Origin: Coleofasciculus sp. B1-GNL1-01
Lineage (GTDB): Bacteria; Cyanobacteriota; Cyanobacteriia; Cyanobacteriales; Coleofasciculaceae
Length of the DNA: 64,000 nucleotides
Assembly: GCA_040220235.1 (NCBI GenBank)
Contig: JAVJTO010000006.1
Strand: one strand, 5' to 3'
The notes under the pieces were generated by a model. It saw nothing but the letters and a program-made list of their open reading frames with translations, was not told the DNA's origin and searched no databases. Position 1 is the first letter of the stretch; each line of letters begins with the position of its first letter. A program made the position numbers and the translations under genes. Positions 6,470 to 50,597 of this stretch are shown here, piece by piece.

Positions 6470-7828
6470 CGGAAGTCCTCACCCTCAACTCTCGTAGGGT
6501 GAGGATGGACAGCGGAAAATTGAGGAACGAAATTTTCAAACTATCCTGACCTAATTACTGGAAATAGCATATAATAGTAAGAAAAGGTAAAAACAATGCG
6601 ACATCAAGCCGTCAAGGTAAGGCTGTATCCCACAACTGAACAACAGGAAATATTAGCTCAACACTTTGGCTGTAGTCGTTGGTGGTGGAATCATGCACTC
6701 AATCTGTGTATTGAAACCTACCAGTTAACAGGTAAGGGCTTGAGTCAATCAGCATTGAATGCATTTTTACCTAAGCTCAAGAAACAGGAAGAGACTGAAT
6801 GGTTGTCTGAATGCTATTCTCAGGTCTTACAAGCTACTACGCTTAACCTGGTAACTGCATATCGAAACTTTTTTGAGGGTAGAGCCAGATACCCCAGGTT
6901 CAAGGCTAAAAGGAATAGGCAATCTATTCAGTATCCCCAATCGGTTAAGGTCGTTGATGATTGCCTCAAGTTTCCCGGTCGCGTTGGTACACTCAAAGCT
7001 AAAATACACCGACCAATTGAAGGAACTATCAAAACAGTAACTGTCAGTATGACCCCATCGGGTAAGTATTTTGCTTCTGTATTAATGGAGTTAGAAGGGA
7101 ATAACCCACCGACTAACACCGATGGTAAAGTCGCTGGAATTGATTTAGGGTTAAAGGATTTTGCCATTGTCAATGATGGGTGCAAAACCTCTAAATACGC
7201 TAATCCCAAACATTTAGCCAAACATGAGCGTAACCTCAAGCGGAAGCAACGGAAATTAGACAGAAAGGAGAAAGGAAGCAAGTCACGAGATAAAGCCAGG
7301 AAACTGGTGGCTAGGGTTCACGAGAGAGTATCAAATGTCCGCCAAGACTACTTACATAAGCTATCCAGAAAGCTTGTTGACGAAAACCAAGTCATCGTAG
7401 TCGAAAGCTTGAATACTAAGGGCATGGTTCGGAACCACAAACTAGCTAAAGCAATTTCTGATGTGGGTTGGGGAATGTTTGTCAATTTTTTATCGTACAA
7501 GCTTGAATTTGAGGGCAAGGTATTGGTAGAAATTGACCGATGGTTCCCTAGCTCAAAACTCTGCTCAAGCTGCCATTATCAGGTAAACGAGATGCCCTTA
7601 GAGGTCAGGACTTGGACTTGTCCTAACTGCGGCACTCATCATGATAGAGACGGTAATGCTTCAGCAAATATCAGAGCGGAAGGCATCAGAATCTTATCGG
7701 TCTTAGGGACTAGGACTGCTGCTGATGGAGGGGATGTGAGACCGAAACTTGGACGTAAGTCTAAGTTGACGCAATCCCCTATGAAATCAGAAGCTCAGGC
7801 TTCTACGAAGTAAGCCTGAGTAGTTCAC
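6455..7828 (+). mobile_element. IS200/IS605-family element carrying tnpB only (IS1341-like)
   Basis: Left hairpin TCCTCACCCT..AGGGTGAGGA; right hairpin CTCAGGCTT..AAGCCTGAG preceded by GAAG and followed by TAGTTCAC; no TSD; left junction uncertain within 6455-6470. Confidence 0.85.
6596..7813 (+). CDS. tnpB: RNA-guided endonuclease TnpB
   Basis: N-terminal HTH (RLYPTTEQ...FGCSRWWWN), RuvC-I GIDLG, RuvC-II VVESL, CSSC/CPNC zinc finger, RuvC-III HDRDGNA; catalytic D-E-D intact. Confidence 0.95.
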   Translation: MRHQAVKVRLYPTTEQQEILAQHFGCSRWWWNHALNLCIETYQLTGKGLSQSALNAFLPKLKKQEETEWLSECYSQVLQATTLNLVTAYRNFFEGRARYPRFKAKRNRQSIQYPQSVKVVDDCLKFPGRVGTLKAKIHRPIEGTIKTVTVSMTPSGKYFASVLMELEGNNPPTNTDGKVAGIDLGLKDFAIVNDGCKTSKYANPKHLAKHERNLKRKQRKLDRKEKGSKSRDKARKLVARVHERVSNVRQDYLHKLSRKLVDENQVIVVESLNTKGMVRNHKLAKAISDVGWGMFVNFLSYKLEFEGKVLVEIDRWFPSSKLCSSCHYQVNEMPLEVRTWTCPNCGTHHDRDGNASANIRAEGIRILSVLGTRTAADGGDVRPKLGRKSKLTQSPMKSEAQASTK

Positions 7829-27779: not shown

Positions 27780-28964
27780 TCAGGCTACACATAAGCCGTT
27801 ATTTCTCCTGATTAAATTGACTTTACTAAGGGCAAATTGTCCAATTCGTTTCCAGGTGTAGTCGCAAACGGAAACCTTTTGAGTCTTTTTGGTATCGGTG
27901 AATCCGCTGACGTAGCCGATGTAGACAATCCCTGCTTTTTCTGCTCTGACCCGATCACCAATTCTCAATCCAAAAGGGGTAATCGTCCCACCTTTACGCT
28001 TCCTTACCCCTAACTTATCTGGTACTTCAAAGTGCAATTGACGACGGAAGAATCCATACTCTTTCCCCCGCTTCACCGCACCAGGGCGGGTGATGATTTT
28101 AAACGGGGAGGGAGTAATATTAACGCTACCCTTATGGGTGTAACCATGGGAGTTAGAACCAGTAAACGGAACATATTTGACAAAATACCCGCAAGCCAAT
28201 GCCACTCCATCAACTGCGTGGGTCTCCGGTTTGGCTATAGACTTGTTAGCCTTATCCTTCTCTAACCCTAGTTGGGTTCGGAGTTGAGATGTGCCGTTTC
28301 CATCCTTTTGCCAACCATGCCGGACATAGACAGGGGTGATACCCTGAGCTTGTCGAAGGGCAATTTTTTCCATTTGGGATATTGCCCAATTCTGACCCGT
28401 CATTACTGGGGAAAATCCCTTACCTGACTTGGCACGTTTGCGTTTGGTCTGATCTATGTCGGCTCTGACTCGCTCATACCCAATTGCCGTCACCGGAAAG
28501 ATAGCCGCCAATTCCGTAACTGTCCGTAACTCCAACTGCCGGGAGGCTTTAATGGATGGGGGTATTTTGTGACCTTTGCGATTATCAAACCTGCATTGCC
28601 GATGGTTGCGCTGCTTGAATGGAACATCTCGGTTAATCCGTCTAGAACGGCGAGACCGTCGCAACATGGCACGGGTTTCCATCCGTTTTTTGACCCGCCC
28701 AAACGGAAGGATAAGATGCAGTTGTAGCAGGGTACATTTAGCGGACTGGACACCGACACCGGAGTAGGACTTACCCGGATCGACTCCTACCGCGATTGGT
28801 TGCACTTCCTCAGCCGATGGTGGTGTTGTTAGTTGGACATAGTAAACTCCCAGATCTGACCACTTCCCCACGGCTTTACCTTCCTTGACCCACCGTGGGA
28901 CCCTGGATGGTTTGGTGGGCATTAAAGGTTTTCCTTCTTTACTAACTACTGGAACACGATTCAT
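27780..28964 (-). CDS. isrB: IsrB-like RNA-guided nickase (PLMP/RRXRR, split RuvC, no HNH)
   Basis: GKPLMPTKP; RuvC-I VGVDPG; Arg-rich bridge helix LRRSRRSRR; RuvC-II GYE; RuvC-III HAVD; no HNH or CxxC insertion. Confidence 0.82.
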   Translation of the reverse strand: MNRVPVVSKEGKPLMPTKPSRVPRWVKEGKAVGKWSDLGVYYVQLTTPPSAEEVQPIAVGVDPGKSYSGVGVQSAKCTLLQLHLILPFGRVKKRMETRAMLRRSRRSRRINRDVPFKQRNHRQCRFDNRKGHKIPPSIKASRQLELRTVTELAAIFPVTAIGYERVRADIDQTKRKRAKSGKGFSPVMTGQNWAISQMEKIALRQAQGITPVYVRHGWQKDGNGTSQLRTQLGLEKDKANKSIAKPETHAVDGVALACGYFVKYVPFTGSNSHGYTHKGSVNITPSPFKIITRPGAVKRGKEYGFFRRQLHFEVPDKLGVRKRKGGTITPFGLRIGDRVRAEKAGIVYIGYVSGFTDTKKTQKVSVCDYTWKRIGQFALSKVNLIRRNNGLCVA

Positions 28965-44147: not shown

Positions 44148-47100
44148 ATGATGAATCGTTCCTTTCAATCATCATTAGAAATTGAGCAACTCTACGGTAT
44201 TCCTGAACCAAATAAAAAACGTGAATTACAGCAGCGACTTGAACAGTTAAACCAAACTCAAACTTACTATCCCGCCGATTACTGTATTCATCAATTAATT
44301 GAACAAGCAGAGCGTCGCACACCAGACAAAATCGCGATTCGGTTTGACGGGCAAACCCTAACCTATCGGGAGTTGAACCGCCGCGCCAACCAGGTTGCCC
44401 ACTACTTACAAACGCTACAGGTTAAACCCGATGTACTGGTGGGGATATGTCTAGAGCGATCGCTCGATATGATCGTGGGTTTATTGGGGATTCTCAAAGC
44501 TGGAGGTGCTTATGTTCCCCTTGATCCCGCCTATCCTCAAGAACGATTAGCCCTGATGATTGAGGATTCCCAAGTCCCTGTCATCGTCACCGAACAAGAC
44601 CAACTGATAAGATTACCCGACACCCAAGCCCAAGTGGTTTGCTTAGATAGCGATCGACAGACCATTACCCAACATAGTTCAGAGAATTTAGACAGTGGTG
44701 TCACGCCTGACAACTTAGCCTACACCATCTATACCTCCGGCTCAACCGGGAAACCCAAAGGCGTCCAAGTGCTGCATCGTGGGGTGGTCAATTTCCTCAC
44801 CTCAATGAGTATCGCCCCTGGACTTACTCCAAAAGACACCCTGCTGGCTGTCACCACCATCTGCTTCGACATTGCCGCATTGGAACTGTATTTACCCTTA
44901 ATCGTTGGTGCTGATATTGTCTTAGTCACGCGAGATGTCGCCGCTGATGCAACTCAGTTAATCCCGGTTTTGCAAGAATCCGGGGCTACCGTCATGCAAG
45001 CCACCCCCGCCACTTGGCGGATGTTATTAGCCGCAGGTTGGCAGGGAAATCCCCAGCTTAAAATTCTTTGTGGGGGGGAACCCATGTCCCGCGAATTGGC
45101 GCGTCAACTCTTAGAACGCAGTGCTTCCCTGTGGAATATGTACGGACCGACGGAAACCACGATCTGGTCAGCCGTGCATCAGGTAGAATCGGCGGACAAG
45201 ACTATTCCCATTGGTCGCCCCATTGCCAATACCCAAATATATCTGGCTCATTCTGAGCAAAATTCATCTGACCCGATTAAATTTGTCCCAGTAGAAGAAC
45301 CGGGAGAATTGCTGATTGGTGGGGTTGGTTTAGCACGAGGGTATCTTAACCGACCTGACTTAACTGATGAACGATTTATTCCCGATCCCTTTAGTTCAGA
45401 ACCGGGTGCCCGTCTCTATCGCACCGGAGACTTAGCCCGGTACTTACCCGATGGGACTCTGGAATGCTTAGGTCGCTTGGATCATCAGGTGAAAATTCGC
45501 GGCTTTCGGATTGAACTGGGTGAGATTGAATCCGCCCTCTATCAACATCCGGGTATCCGAGACGCGGTGGTTGTCGCCCGTGATGACAGTTCGGGCGAAA
45601 AGCGCTTAGTTGCCTATCTCGTCAGTGACTTAGACGTTGAAAATGTTCCCCTAGAAACAAAATGCTGGGTAGCGTGTGAGGGAAATCCAGAAATTGAATT
45701 AACCACCAGCAATTTCTCGGTCAATAGTATTCGGTTACTTCATGCTCCCGCCTCCTGGCGAAACGGTCAATCCTTGACGCTGCGTTGCCAGTTTCCTGGC
45801 GTTCCCGATGAACTTCAACTTACTGGAACCATCGCTACAAAAGCCCTGGAATGGGTAGATGTTTCCCTAGACACCACCTCCAGCCAACAGACATGTTTAC
45901 GTCAGAGTATCAAACACATTGCCCAAACCCAGGGATTAGCCGTTCATGACTTACGCCGCAAAGAACCCCGCACCCCGCTAACGATTAATTGTCTGGCGGA
46001 ATTAGAATCGGGTGAAAAAGTCCAGGTGATAACGCAAAATATTAGCCAAGAGGGAATTTGCTTAAAGGCAACAACGGCTAATCCCTGGCAAATCGATCAG
46101 CGCCTATTACTCCGATTACAATTACCCGGAGGTGAAACCCCGTTATGGTTGCAAGGTCATATTGTCTGGCAGTTTGAAGACTATGTTGGCGTCCAGTTTG
46201 ATACTACAACCAGCCAGAAGGCGAAACTCCATCGCAGCTTAGGCAATTTGCGGACAGAACCCCGTATTCCCCTCCAGATCAAGGGTCGGGCGGAATTTGA
46301 GTCGGGTCAACAAGTGGAAGTGATCACGCAAAACTTCAGCCGCAATGGGATTAGCTTAAAGGCGCTCACCCCGACATTTTGGCACAACAATCAACCTGTA
46401 CTTTTGCGGGTACAACTGCCAGGGGTGGACAATCCCTTGTGGCTGCAAGGCACTGTGGTTTGGCATGTTGAGGAAAACGCTGGGGTGATTTTTGAGACCA
46501 CACCCACCCAGCAGGAGCAAATCCATCAGAGTATTGAGCTGATCGTTAAAACTCAAGGATTATCGCTGGCGCAGTTGCGATCGTTCCTGAGTGATAAGCT
46601 ACCGACTTATATGGTGCCCTCAACCTTTGTGTTAGTAGATAGCCTGCCCCTAACACCCAACCGTAAAGTCGATCGCAAGGCGTTACCTGACCCCAACCAA
46701 GCGCAACAGGTGGCTCAGGATACCTTCGTCGCACCGCGCACACCTGTTGAACAGGAGTTAGCCCAAATCTGGGCAACTGTACTCGATGTTGAGCGTGTGG
46801 GTGTGTATGACAACTTCTTTGAACTAGGGGGACATTCGCTGCTGACAGCGCAACTGTTATCGCAGGTGCGAGAACAATTCCAGGTGGAGTTACCGTTGTT
46901 TGCTCTGTTTGAAGCGCCGACTGTAGCGGAACTGGCTCAAACGATTACCGCCAAGACTAACGCTGATCCGTCTCAACCGGAAGGGGATGGGACAACGGTG
47001 ACGGGTACAATCGCGGTCACGAATTTAGCCAACGATGCGGTTTTGGATGAGACGATTTATCCAGAAAAGCCCTATCGTCAGCCAGACACTGCACCGGAAA

Positions 47101-48200
47101 AGATTTTGATTACAGGCGCGTCAGGTTTTCTGGGAGCGTTTTTATTGCGGGAATTACTCCAGCATACGAATGCTACCGTCTATTGCTTAGTCCGTGCCAA
47201 AACGCTGGAGGCGGGTCAGCAAAAAATTGCCGCGAGTTTCAACCGCTATTTACTTTCATCAGATAAGTTGGAGTCGCGGGTTGTCCCGGTGTTGGGTGAT
47301 TTAGCTCAACCGAGGTTGGGACTATCAGAGTCGCAGTACGAAGCGTTAACTCGCGAGATTGACTGTATCTATCACAATGGGGCGTTTGTCAACTTAATTT
47401 ATCCCTACAGCGCCTTGCGATCGGCAAATGTCCTGGGAACTCAGGAAATTCTCAAATTAGCCAGTAAAACCAAGGTCAAACCCGTTCACTTTGTCTCAAC
47501 GCTGGATGTGTTTCAATCGCCGCGCTATGCTCAGATGTCGGTGATTTTAGAACAGGATAGCTTGGAATCAGGGGATGACCTGTCTGATGGTTATGCTCAA
47601 AGTAAATGGGTGGGTGAGAAGTTAGTTAAACAGGCACACGCACGGGGGATTCCGGCGTCGATTTACCGACCGGGTATGATTACCGGACATAGCCAAACCG
47701 GGGCGTCTCAACAGGGGGATCTAATTGACCGATTAATTAAAGGGTTGATTCAATTGGGAAGTGCGCCGGAGTTGGACTTAAATCTCAGTTTGACTCCTGT
47801 AGACTATGTGTCCCAAGCGATCGCCCATCTGTCCCAGCAACCGGATTTATTCGGTCAATCGTTTCACTTGGTTAGTCCGGAGATGGTATCCTTACAGCAA
47901 CTCGTGGACGAAATTCGGGCTATTGGTCATCCAATTGAATGGATGGATTATTCTACCTGGCAAGATAAGCTGGTTCAGGTTGCCAGTTCCCAGCCTGACA
48001 ATGCGTTGAGTCCATTGGTGTTCCTGTTTACTCAATGGGTTGGTGAAAGCCAACGCCCCTATCTGGAAACAGCGGCTTTAGTCTCTCAGGCGTTTGATTC
48101 CCAGAATACGTTAGCGGGTTTAGCCGGAACGAATATTGTCTGTCCGTCAGTTAATAGTCAGGTGATTCGGGCTTATCTGAACTATAACCAGTTGGTTTGA
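44148..48200 (+). CDS. Stand-alone NRPS-like reductase: A(Gly) interrupted by three PilZ domains, PCP, thioester reductase
   Basis: A3 YTSGSTGKPKG, A5 NMYGPTE, A7 YRTGDL, A8 GRLDHQVKIRGFRIELGEIE, insertion of about 310 aa, A9 LPTYMVP, A10 NRKVDR; PCP DNFFELGGHSL; R domain TGASGFLG, YAQSK. Confidence 0.93.
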   Translation: MMNRSFQSSLEIEQLYGIPEPNKKRELQQRLEQLNQTQTYYPADYCIHQLIEQAERRTPDKIAIRFDGQTLTYRELNRRANQVAHYLQTLQVKPDVLVGICLERSLDMIVGLLGILKAGGAYVPLDPAYPQERLALMIEDSQVPVIVTEQDQLIRLPDTQAQVVCLDSDRQTITQHSSENLDSGVTPDNLAYTIYTSGSTGKPKGVQVLHRGVVNFLTSMSIAPGLTPKDTLLAVTTICFDIAALELYLPLIVGADIVLVTRDVAADATQLIPVLQESGATVMQATPATWRMLLAAGWQGNPQLKILCGGEPMSRELARQLLERSASLWNMYGPTETTIWSAVHQVESADKTIPIGRPIANTQIYLAHSEQNSSDPIKFVPVEEPGELLIGGVGLARGYLNRPDLTDERFIPDPFSSEPGARLYRTGDLARYLPDGTLECLGRLDHQVKIRGFRIELGEIESALYQHPGIRDAVVVARDDSSGEKRLVAYLVSDLDVENVPLETKCWVACEGNPEIELTTSNFSVNSIRLLHAPASWRNGQSLTLRCQFPGVPDELQLTGTIATKALEWVDVSLDTTSSQQTCLRQSIKHIAQTQGLAVHDLRRKEPRTPLTINCLAELESGEKVQVITQNISQEGICLKATTANPWQIDQRLLLRLQLPGGETPLWLQGHIVWQFEDYVGVQFDTTTSQKAKLHRSLGNLRTEPRIPLQIKGRAEFESGQQVEVITQNFSRNGISLKALTPTFWHNNQPVLLRVQLPGVDNPLWLQGTVVWHVEENAGVIFETTPTQQEQIHQSIELIVKTQGLSLAQLRSFLSDKLPTYMVPSTFVLVDSLPLTPNRKVDRKALPDPNQAQQVAQDTFVAPRTPVEQELAQIWATVLDVERVGVYDNFFELGGHSLLTAQLLSQVREQFQVELPLFALFEAPTVAELAQTITAKTNADPSQPEGDGTTVTGTIAVTNLANDAVLDETIYPEKPYRQPDTAPEKILITGASGFLGAFLLRELLQHTNATVYCLVRAKTLEAGQQKIAASFNRYLLSSDKLESRVVPVLGDLAQPRLGLSESQYEALTREIDCIYHNGAFVNLIYPYSALRSANVLGTQEILKLASKTKVKPVHFVSTLDVFQSPRYAQMSVILEQDSLESGDDLSDGYAQSKWVGEKLVKQAHARGIPASIYRPGMITGHSQTGASQQGDLIDRLIKGLIQLGSAPELDLNLSLTPVDYVSQAIAHLSQQPDLFGQSFHLVSPEMVSLQQLVDEIRAIGHPIEWMDYSTWQDKLVQVASSQPDNALSPLVFLFTQWVGESQRPYLETAALVSQAFDSQNTLAGLAGTNIVCPSVNSQVIRAYLNYNQLV

Positions 48201-48254: not shown

Positions 48255-48516
48255 AATTATCGTATCTGCCAATTGAGTATAGGGCGACCCGATCTAATTG
48301 AGTGGATACAGGTGTTCATTGAGGCAAGCGGGTCGCCCCTACAGGGGGAATCTCAGATGTGTGTTTGATCTATACACACCATAAGCGCGATCGCGGAAAT
48401 CTTATCGTCTCGGAAAAACTTGACCTGCTTCAATTTGCAGACAACCAACGACCCTTATAATGGGTAAAAGAATGTAAAGAAGTAATAACGACAAGATTTA
48501 GGGACACTTACCTATT

Positions 48517-48879
48517 GTGTTTGTTCTTAGCGGCTACGAATATTTCCTAGGGTTCTTACTGGCAAGCAGTTTAGTCCCCGTCCTCGCACTAGCAGCCTCA
48601 AAGCTGCTGCGACCCAGCATCCGTGACCCCGAACGCCGGACGACCTACGAATCTGGCATGGAACCGATTGGGGGCGCTTGGATTCAGTTCAATATCCGGT
48701 ACTATATGTTTGCCCTGGTCTTTGTGATTTTCGATGTAGAGACCGTGTTTCTCTATCCCTGGGCAGTGGCATTCAATCAGCTAGGACTACTAGCGTTTAT
48801 CGAAGCACTCATCTTTATTGCAATTCTCGTCGTTGCCCTCGTTTACGCTTGGCGCAAAGGAGCTTTAGAATGGTCGTAA
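48517..48879 (+). CDS. ndhC: NDH-1 subunit 3
   Basis: [42 protein letters not shown]. Confidence 0.98.
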
Positions 48880-49324
48880 ACTACCCCGTCCATGGTTAGG
48901 CATGGAAGAGGCTTTCCAAAAGCCTATGTTTACCAGCCTAAGTTCTGCCTTGAACTACGTTATGTCTAAGTGTTAAAGTTCGTACCTACAGATGCGTAGC
49001 TAGTCTGTAGCTCTACAACTCCAGCATTAAACAGGTTATAGGGAAAAGCCAGTGTGTTGGAGAAAGTACCGAGACATAACTTTGGCGAAGCTAACGTTAC
49101 CCCGACAGGGAGGGGCGCAAGCCCAATCAAACAACCCATATCCGTACAGGTTAAAAGCACGAGGAAAGTAACTACCCAGGCGACAGGCAAGGGCAATATG
49201 CCGAACGTCGGCGAGTAAATCCAAGGCGGTAGGGGTTTAGAGATTTTTGTACTTTACCTAGGAGGCGCGGCTTTCTAACTGCCCATACTATCTATGGATG
49301 AGGTATCCAGTCGCGAATATTTGG
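48876..49324 (+). mobile_element. Non-autonomous IS200/IS605 element carrying an IscB-type (HEARO-like) omegaRNA and no nuclease ORF
   Basis: Starts GTAAACTACCCCG; omegaRNA-like motifs ACCAGCCTAAG, CTACGTT, GCTCT, CATTAAACAG, GGCGAAGCTAAC; hairpins at both ends; removing it restores the ndhC/ndhK overlap. Confidence 0.8.
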
Positions 49325-50068
49325 ATGAATACAGATACAGCAAACGCGGCACCCCAAAAGCCGCAACCCAAAGAAAAAATTCTCAATCCCATCAGTCGTC
49401 CTCAGGTCACGCAAGACCTCTCAGAAAACGTCATTTTGACGACAGTAGACGACCTCTATAACTGGGCTAGGCTGTCCAGCCTGTGGCCCATGATGTATGG
49501 CACCGCCTGCTGTTTCATTGAATTTGCGGCGATGATTGGGTCTCGGTTCGACTTTGACCGATTCGGATTAGTGCCGCGTTCGAGTCCCCGACAAGCGGAT
49601 TTGATTATTACTGCTGGTACAATCACGATGAAAATGGCACCGGCGTTGGTGCGTCTGTATGAGCAAATGCCGGAACCCAAATATGCGATGGCAATGGGGG
49701 CTTGTACAATTACCGGGGGGATGTTCAGCGTCGATTCGACAACCGCCGTGCGGGGTGTGGATAAGTTGATTCCTGTGGATGTTTATATTCCTGGCTGTCC
49801 ACCTCGTCCCGAAGCAATTATGGATGCGATCGTTAAACTTCGTAAGAAGGTGGCAAATGAGTCTATCCAGGAACGGGCAACTCTGAGTCCAACCCACCGC
49901 TATTACAGCACCACTCATAGCATGAAGGTTGTACCCGATATTCTCACAGGTCAATACTTGCGGTCTGAAAATCGCCACACTCCACCGAAGGAGTTAACCG
50001 AAGCGATGGGAATGCCTGTACCCCCCGCACTGAAGTCTTCTCAACAGCAGGAGGTCAATCGTGGCTGA
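49325..50068 (+). CDS. ndhK: NDH-1 subunit K
   Basis: [30 protein letters not shown]; start taken at ATG 49325. Confidence 0.97.
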
Positions 50069-50597
50069 AGAAGAGTCCAAAGAACAGACCCAAGAAAATA
50101 CGGAAGAATCCCCACTCGCTGAGACAGGAGAAGTCCACGGCTGGCTGAAGGAAAACGGCTTTGAAACCGAGTTAATGGAACCGGATCACCTGGGAATTGA
50201 GGTGATTAAGGTACAACCCGAGGTCTTGATTCCCGTTGCCACGGCTCTGTATGCTTATGGGTTTAACTACCTGCAATGTCAAGGGGGTTATGATGTCGGT
50301 CCTGGCGAAGAGTTGGTCAGCTTCTACCATTTAATTAAGATCAGCGATGATGCTGAGCAACCTGAAGAAGTCCGGGTGAAGGTATTTCTACCACGAGAGA
50401 ATCCCAGCGTGCCATCTGTCTATTGGATTTGGAAGAGTGCTGACTGGCAAGAACGGGAAACCTACGATATGTTCGGCATTGTCTATGAAGGACACCCCAA
50501 CTTGAAGCGGATTTTGATGCCGGAAGATTGGGTAGGCTGGCCCCTGCGGAAGGATTATATCTCGCCTGACTTCTATGAATTGCAGGATGCTTATTAA
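50061..50597 (+). CDS. ndhJ: NDH-1 subunit J
   Basis: [42 protein letters not shown]. Confidence 0.97.

Follow-up and report, generated by a model that had tools for sequence, protein, structure and literature searches.

A probable non-autonomous element of the IscB kind at the ndhC/ndhK junction of Coleofasciculus, with evidence of lateral spread and an uncatalogued RNA module

The question raised by this locus is how 449 bp without an open reading frame came to lie exactly between ndhC and ndhK with both genes unbroken, and what the RNA read from these bases may do. The DNA analyzed, here termed the window, is the whole stretch of 64,000 nt from contig JAVJTO010000006.1 of Coleofasciculus sp. 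B1-GNL1-01; the genome of the window is G000, the reference for comparisons of carriers. The overall reading, to which we assign a probability of roughly 0.6, is that the insert represents a non-autonomous, ATGA-targeting element of the IscB kind that has spread laterally and has an RNA domain in place of iscB.

The upstream gene, ndhC (48517–48879, plus strand), encodes 120 aa (PF00507) and takes its last codon and stop (TCG TAA) from the insert. The downstream gene, ndhK (49325–50068, plus strand), encodes 247 aa (PF01058) and is present in single copy. Positions 48876–49324 represent the 449-bp insertion, which has no target duplication. Excision of these bases in silico gives GAATGGTC joined directly to ATGAAT, in which ndhC ends in WS* and ndhK begins MVMNTD. 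With the insert ndhC terminates as TGG TCG TAA; NdhC still ends in WS, as stated in the preliminary description, the final bases and the TAA stop being provided by the element. A separate observation concerns the region upstream of ndhC, where positions 44148–48200 (plus) encode a 1350-aa NRPS-like protein (AMP-binding, carrier, reductase). PilZ domains (two stretches pass) are found inside its adenylation C-terminal subdomain, a domain content that suggests control by c-di-GMP.

The junction was compared in the 30 best ndhK loci from a 41-genome search, i.e., nine genomes of the same genus and 21 loci from other genera. The insert (449–452 bp) is found at the identical base in five of the nine (G000, G001, G002, G005 and G006), and the empty allele, GAATGGTC followed by ATGAAT, is present in three (G003, G007 and G008). 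These real empty alleles substantiate the original claim of an ORF-less element placed exactly at the ndhC/ndhK overlap with both genes unbroken. Genome G004 has a deleted copy, with element bases 1–51 and 363–449 kept, and a second, RRXRR-encoding element of 1154 bp between TTTGG and ATGAA. The position of this second element provides an independent fix of the 3' boundary of the insert. The genes overlap in 20 of the 21 loci from other genera. The exception (L044, in G034, which is of another family) has 127 bp between the two genes, and this spacer terminates with a left-end remnant of the insert's element family, again abutting the ndhK ATGA. The comparison of sister strains proposed earlier thus yields filled, empty and doubly filled alleles, and the only long spacer in a relative itself terminates in such a remnant and is not the ordinary spacer that had been named as an alternative to an insertion. 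The insert, the second element of G004 and the remnant in L044 indicate that the ndhC/ndhK junction has been struck at least three times. The same insertion is present in the Coleofasciculus records L117, L126 and L140.

Two further arrangements were observed in these alleles and at a sister site. The RRXRR (IsrB-like) ORF of the second element in G004 (L026:2241–3155, minus) is internally deleted and crosses the left end of the element; its stop falls in the ndhK ATGA, where stop and start overlap by 4 nt once more. A sister ORF-less omegaRNA element precedes a folD-like start in L062 (contig C126 of G008; compared with L063 and L069). In L062 a second, TTCA-type element lies between the left end and the ATGA of the sister element, similar to the arrangement in G004.

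The native start of ndhK is likely the first ATG, at 48870, as judged from the reading frames and the bases upstream. This ATG lies 7 nt behind AAGGAG (48857–48862) and is in frame in 22 of 24 matched junctions, the exceptions (G004 and L044) both having an insertion. The third ndhK codon is ATG in only 19 of the 24. In the window, the old ndhK start has been redirected by the insertion into a mini-ORF of 9 codons, MVVNYPVHG (48870–48899, plus), and from the frames available ndhK in a carrier must start at 49325 (or 49298). The bases ATGAA at 49325–49329 (plus) represent the TnpA target (TTCAT on the minus strand), the predicted TAM and the new ndhK start. The insertion is tolerated because the element completes the ndhC stop and ndhK retains an ATG. 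The ndhK gene is intact in all five carriers, with 18–38 synonymous versus 0–7 non-synonymous codon differences per pair.

The insert has the ends of an ORF-less element of the IS200/IS605 type (ISC/PATE-type; 48876–49324, plus). In IS608, guide tetranucleotides pair with cleavage motifs by a fixed rule. On the minus strand the element is preceded by TCAT and ends in TTAC, and GATA and AAAG are found at the feet of the subterminal hairpins. The right end (48876–48915, minus) consists of the TTAC cleavage motif, a subterminal hairpin (fold z of -2.4) and the AAAG guide at 48912–48915. The left end (49260–49324, minus) has the GATA guide at 49304–49307 and an imperfect hairpin whose fold alone is not significant (z of -0.5). 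The IS608-type code suggested earlier for both ends, TTAC with AAAG and TCAT with GATA, is therefore present in terms of this rule. Guide pairing of the IS608 kind is described in the accessible text of Meers et al. 2023 (bioRxiv 10.1101/2023.03.14.532601). A comparison of 62 distinct related 5' ends shows TGAC in 61, of which 40 have CAAG at the guide position (9 with no call). The combination of TTAC and AAAG is found in the window copy and in the iscB element on contig C126 of G000, and ends related to 49260–49324 are present at C58 and C91 of G000.

Insertion beside a fixed 4–5-nt target without duplication, and subterminal hairpins with guide tetranucleotides that match the cleavage motifs, are properties of ISC transposons and PATEs. 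The available portion of Kapitonov 2016 (PMC4810608) lists ISC families with N/ATGA targets (ISC1-1_MA, ISC2-1_HM and ISC2-1_MS) and describes PATEs as ORF-less derivatives of ISC transposons. The element is not a coding ISC, in that it does not encode IscB; no iscB ORF or remnant was found within it (tblastn best E of 0.11). ATGA abuts 71 of 86 distinct element ends among the collected loci, in a survey where the end rule favoured ATGA-type words and 8 further ends without the left-end motif were set aside. An open frame of at least 60 codons is present at 50 of these 71 ends versus 516 of 3130 random ATGA sites. Placement at a start codon is ordinary because ATGA is the element's target. The boundaries and the N/ATGA target given in the preliminary description are borne out, but the significance attached to the placement was overrated since it follows from ATGA targeting.

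Positions 48876–49100 (plus) fold as a HEARO/omegaRNA scaffold (Rfam RF02033, model positions 1–211). The match is full-length, with 141.8 bits against a cut-off of 83 bits, it is the sole non-tRNA Rfam match in the window, and it supports the omegaRNA identity that had been proposed. The predicted guide (spacer), according to the published IscB model, is the ndhC 3' end at 48856–48875 (plus), which holds AAGGAG and ATG 48870. In this model, as found in part of the text of Meers 2023 (bioRxiv 10.1101/2023.03.14.532601), the omegaRNA guide comes from host read-through. An operon mRNA that carries a predicted guide with the ndhC 3' end as spacer, as first suggested, is consistent with the model. 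The right-end scaffold, the guide in the host flank and transcription from outside correspond to HEARO, the last at the level of contigs from libraries that may contain DNA. The last 25 nt of this ndhC 3' end are identical in the empty alleles of G007 and G008, and there is a single mismatch, at -9, in G003 and G004. A search for self-targeting in G000 gave no perfect 10–20-nt spacer followed by ATGA; with up to 3 mismatches allowed, a 16-mer ahead of ATGA was likewise absent.

Candidate protein partners are encoded elsewhere in the genome. G000 has 19 HEARO matches, 13 of them above the cut-off, and the window scaffold is the third best of the 19. Full-length IscB frames of 434–447 codons follow four of these HEAROs (C47, C122, C126 and C165); RRXRR and HNH domains are present in both of the two frames scanned. 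The C126 element starts with GTAAAC and ends at ATGAA, as the window element does. A Y1 TnpA is available in trans, with 13 PF01797 matches in G000, five of which have E < 1e-23. The expectation of an iscB with a matching scaffold was only partly realized; full-length iscB genes are present, but the scaffolds linked to them are 51–68% identical to the window RNA over aligned columns. Altae-Tran and coworkers reportedly observed in 2021 that stand-alone omegaRNAs act in trans. PATE-encoded RNAs that are acted on in trans are described in the accessible part of Meers et al. 2023 (bioRxiv 10.1101/2023.03.14.532601).

Other genes and scaffolds of this type were also noted. The window has an HNH-less RRXRR (IsrB-like) gene at 27780–28964 (minus), with a tRNA gene (29264) ~300 bp away; a TnpB gene of IS605 is found at 6596–7813 (plus). 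A weak HEARO match in G000 (L014, C64:11846–12042, minus) is situated just upstream of an ORF in a ribosomal protein operon. We take this ORF to be rplR and the preceding gene end to be rplF. Further HEARO copies precede genes that are presumably psbO-like and rnr-like.

Transcription was assessed with contigs from 4 of 22 runs; contigs give no RNA ends or strand. A contig from an RNA library (X9) spans 48479–50146, through the insert, with the reservation that libraries may contain DNA. In runs X1 and X4, which are RNA libraries, two overlapping contigs cover the region, insert included. Run X16, the type of which is not recorded, is the only one with a skip of 449 bases, and one side of that skip has 23 letters. 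A skip of the insert was sought in the three RNA-library runs and none was found, nor was splicing or a cut seen at contig level. The presence of the insert within RNA-library contigs shows that it is retained in RNA, as far as contigs show. The earlier idea that processing cuts the polycistron is not favored, in that the RNA-library contig is continuous through the insert, within the limit that contigs cannot show ends. A consensus scan for internal promoters gave 3 sites versus 1.5 expected, none within the element.

The carriers differ from each other at 3–7 of 449 element bases, at 18–41 of 247 ndhK third positions and at 8.9–15.6% of rpoB third positions. In the rpoB tree G000 groups with G004 and the empty G007 (support 100/99), and carrier monophyly is rejected with a p-AU of 0.0027, a value from one gene in a recombining genus. 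Comparison of the first 50 nt of ndhK with G000 shows no differences in the four other carriers and 5–8 differences in four genomes without the full element. The sequences of G001 and G000 around the element are identical between -116 and +50, with 10 differences in the 100 bases that follow. The deleted copy in G004 has flanks of the non-carrier type. The near-identical elements, the carriers that do not form a clade and the identical immediate flanks together imply lateral spread between lineages. These alignments show that the element moved between lineages along with ~50–130 bp of flank.

The mechanism proposed has four steps. Y1 TnpA made elsewhere would place the ORF-less element immediately 5' of ATGA. 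Operon transcription through the insert would then produce, according to the published model, an omegaRNA with the ndhC 3' end as guide. IscB made in trans would cut empty alleles, and repair from a carrier would copy the element; we consider this the most likely driver of the spread and hold it with evenly divided confidence. A candidate for this protein is that of C126, an element that shares the TTAC end and the ATGAA flank of the window copy. Lastly, the ~105-nt domain described below would replace iscB and would protect the untranslated RNA or dock a protein, allowing loading by a trans-made protein, a step for which confidence falls a little short of even. Lateral spread with an identical short flank is what homing through IscB in trans predicts, and cut-and-copy homing leaves just such a short tract in common, with the insertion at its centre. 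Against homing, G007 and G008 are empty despite a perfect target, and the iscB-linked scaffolds of G000 have the limited identity to the window RNA given above.

The chief alternative is that the element is inert at this site, i.e., there was one insertion, spread was by homologous recombination and drift, and the omegaRNA was never loaded. Patchy identity is found at many places along the locus within the genus, so ordinary recombination could have moved the tract. The empty genomes with perfect targets, the deletion derivative in G004 and the decay of the RNA module in the window copy are also in keeping with inertness. However, the identical tract of G001 and G000 is short and centred on the insertion, and the scaffold still ranks third among the 19 HEARO matches of the genome. 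Inertness is a real contender, although on balance improbable, and homing of an element of the IscB kind is retained as the preferred account of the spread.

The RNA module at 49133–49237 (plus) is ~105 nt and scores 70.2 bits with its own model, R2, which was built including this copy. It consists of P1, a conserved internal loop, P2, P3 and a three-way junction with two hairpins, the loops of which pair. The preliminary description had overlooked this module. Covariation was analyzed in 63 sequences with < 86% identity (L094 omitted from 64), many of which were selected by the conserved pattern, and their conservation is therefore partly built in. In these sequences 94.6% of the cells of 25 pairs are paired, and 19 pairs are changed on both sides. 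None of 500 shuffles reached as high a value, and slid controls gave 33–42%. The top 15 mutual-information pairs, obtained blind to structure, are all in P1–P5 or in the loop-loop contact, where the contact pair is U-A in 36 sequences and C-G in 25. Single-sequence folding shows the long outer stem in five intact copies and both hairpins in four of them. RNAalifold applied to a first, narrow alignment gave almost no structure (-0.63 kcal/mol); the structure emerged from hand-drawn helices and wider sampling. A pairing of loop 4 with the 3' strand, considered with the narrow alignment, shows no change on both sides and was rejected.

Of 35 conserved columns, 3 are altered in the window copy, and its P4 is broken; the module is decayed in this copy. 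Rfam searches over the module gave no match in the window at E up to 10 and none in 29 other loci at E up to 1–2. An iscB coding remnant was rejected as the origin of the module (tblastn best E of 0.11). The SRP Alu domain, hammerhead, HDV-like and pistol ribozymes and several riboswitches were considered, with Rfam as the test, and were rejected because core residues are missing. No title or abstract among the papers listed by full-text searches of the open literature describes the module, although a prior description may exist elsewhere.

Within the order, 35 of 151 genomes have the module according to a covariance model. Model R2, applied to 151 genomes of the phylum, finds it in 16, which are all of the same order and have up to 26 copies each. 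A pattern scan of metagenomes gave at least 121 stretches, and a looser pattern used on viruses gave 11 stretches, of which 3 are true modules. Two queries of plasmids gave one match each, in Dolichospermum and Calothrix. Three non-cyanobacterial pattern matches (L119, L122 and L139) were rejected because the remainder of the module is missing. Within the genus, module bases 49133–49237 recur in other elements.

There are 203 distinct instances, of which 152 are directly 3' of HEARO, 12 have a pattern match to group II domain V nearby, 28 are elsewhere and 11 have a short context; these counts are not independent, since the loci are related to each other and represent the tools' best matches. 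None of the 203 has sequence coding for IscB or IsrB within 700 nt of the module, and there are two with TnpB matches and two with RT matches. Rfam puts ten instances in group II introns. Nine modules are 5' of domain V (L161, L162, L172, L176, L178, L185, L201, L225 and L240) and from this position probably lie in group II domain IV; in L164 the module is inside the match to domains V-VI. In L191, L193 and L220 the module is found in ORF-less elements (with a TnpB tail match for L193) whose ends, judged by eye, we take to be IS605-type. The module is always in the sense of the element RNA and, except in L164, at the ORF position. Near-identical copies at different loci of one genome (L332 and L347) indicate that the family is mobile. 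In G000, four of five ORF-less HEARO copies above the cut-off are without the module, which is thus dispensable for ORF-less elements.

Several individual instances have additional features. L191, L193 and L220 display a promoter-like site and the word CCTTGAAAAC upstream of the module; this word presumably resembles the cyanobacterial boxA. In G000, a module without adjacent HEARO (C53:86325–86424, minus) precedes a conserved gene starting MAKERPP, and another (C75:28903–29005, plus) is followed by a left end and ATGAA. In L180 (G127) an RT ORF follows immediately on the end of an ORF-less group II intron that bears a module, an arrangement that may represent nested introns.

The module is decayed in the window copy and deleted in G004, which implies that the host has no need of it. 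We suggest, tentatively and as the most likely function, that it serves RNAs reliant on a trans-made protein, either by protecting them or by docking a protein. A wider proposal, made with somewhat greater hesitation, is that the module represents an undescribed functional RNA class (protein- or ribosome-docking, stabilising, or a new self-cleaving ribozyme). Three unrelated kinds of selfish RNA that live on trans-made proteins (group II introns, IscB omegaRNAs and IS605/TnpB-type RNAs) would each have recruited it in place of an ORF, and guide elements of this ORF-less type would home into conserved start codons across cyanobacterial lineages. That the module is a selfish passenger is a further option.

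A self-cleaving ribozyme related to twister-sister, with the cut at the conserved C-A step (equivalent of 49147–49148), is an unlikely reading but one with specific points of resemblance. Such a cut would set the 3' end of the omegaRNA and free the mRNA downstream. Eight of twelve residues of the twister-sister L1 region are matched in register (C6, A7, A8, G9, C58, G59, C62 and A63; from the accessible part of PMC5660989). The internal loop, the multi-stem junction and the pseudoknot are ribozyme-candidate criteria in the text available of PMC10085705, and minimal twister-sister-like ribozymes without SL4 exist (PMC11620745, in part). However, all 63 sequences have a pyrimidine, C or U, where twister-sister has G5 (pair 17–95). 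As G5U or G5C abolishes twister-sister cleavage (PMC5660989, same part), the module is not a member of twister-sister. It also has A at U61 and U at C60; with respect to A8-U61/G59 and C62-A63, A8, G59, C62 and A63 are matched and U61 is A. At the G of the SL4-like loop word, 36 of the 63 sequences have A, and this position covaries with the other loop. The Rfam twister-sister model has no match in 29 loci, a cut inside a group II intron has no obvious use, and RNA contigs cross the C-A site, in a window copy that is decayed. The HRIMA motifs of PMC10085705 were, according to the part of that source available, not found in any genome of a known organism apart from one unrelated case.

It is distinctly improbable that the module is an aptamer which senses a ligand and so tunes the selfish RNA, by way of splicing or guide loading. 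Invariant bases in the internal loop and junction and a loop-loop pair are typical of aptamers, and there is precedent in a c-di-GMP riboswitch that controls a group I intron. The possible pairing of loop 4 with the 3' strand in the narrower alignment would also suit an aptamer, but it is without change on both sides; the module has no expression platform, the downstream genes share no function and no Rfam riboswitch matches. Least credible is that the insert is spliced from the mRNA as an IStron, restoring the coupled ndhC-ndhK junction; insertion at an operon junction and the module's presence in group II introns would suit this, but no intron family matches the element, neither a group I intron core nor splicing is found, and the contigs of three RNA-library runs contain the insert.

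The locus is of significance in that it provides evidence from a natural population for the spread of a guide RNA element without an ORF, across lineages, into chromosomal alleles that were empty. According to the parts of reviews that are available, homing of OMEGA elements has mostly been shown in laboratory assays. The strongly covarying fold was encountered solely among selfish RNAs without an ORF, and these belong to two or more unrelated kinds, probably three; this distribution points to some requirement that non-autonomous RNAs have in common. The module is small and has dozens of natural variants. Should it prove catalytic, it would form a new class or variant of ribozyme, and should it be a docking domain, guide RNAs supplied in trans could be improved with it.

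Comparison with known systems shows both likeness and difference. The element resembles HEARO/IscB omegaRNAs in its full model match, the right-end scaffold, the 5' host guide and the orientation of the upstream gene, but it has no iscB ORF and has the ~105-nt module in its place. With ISC N/ATGA transposons and PATEs (PMC4810608, in the portion available) it shares the location 5' of ATGA, the absence of duplication, the subterminal hairpins, TnpA in trans and the existence of ORF-less derivatives. It differs in that there is evidence of lateral spread at one chromosomal site across lineages, and the module is not mentioned in that portion of PMC4810608. The module is similar to twister-sister and TS-like ribozymes (accessible parts of PMC5660989 and PMC11620745) in the CAAG internal loop opposite C-A, the extruded-G pattern and the peripheral hairpins. 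In contrast to these it lacks G5, C60 and U61, its junction domain is on the other side of the loop, its loop G is within a covarying loop-loop pair and it has no Rfam match. IStrons (group I intron with IS605/IS607; PMC13565253, in part) are similar in being of the IS200/IS605 type with a structured RNA in host transcripts, whereas this element has no intron core, no splicing was seen in the contigs and it is IscB-type and not TnpB-type. The insertion itself is what an element that targets ATGA would ordinarily produce; the lateral spread and the uncatalogued module are the new parts.
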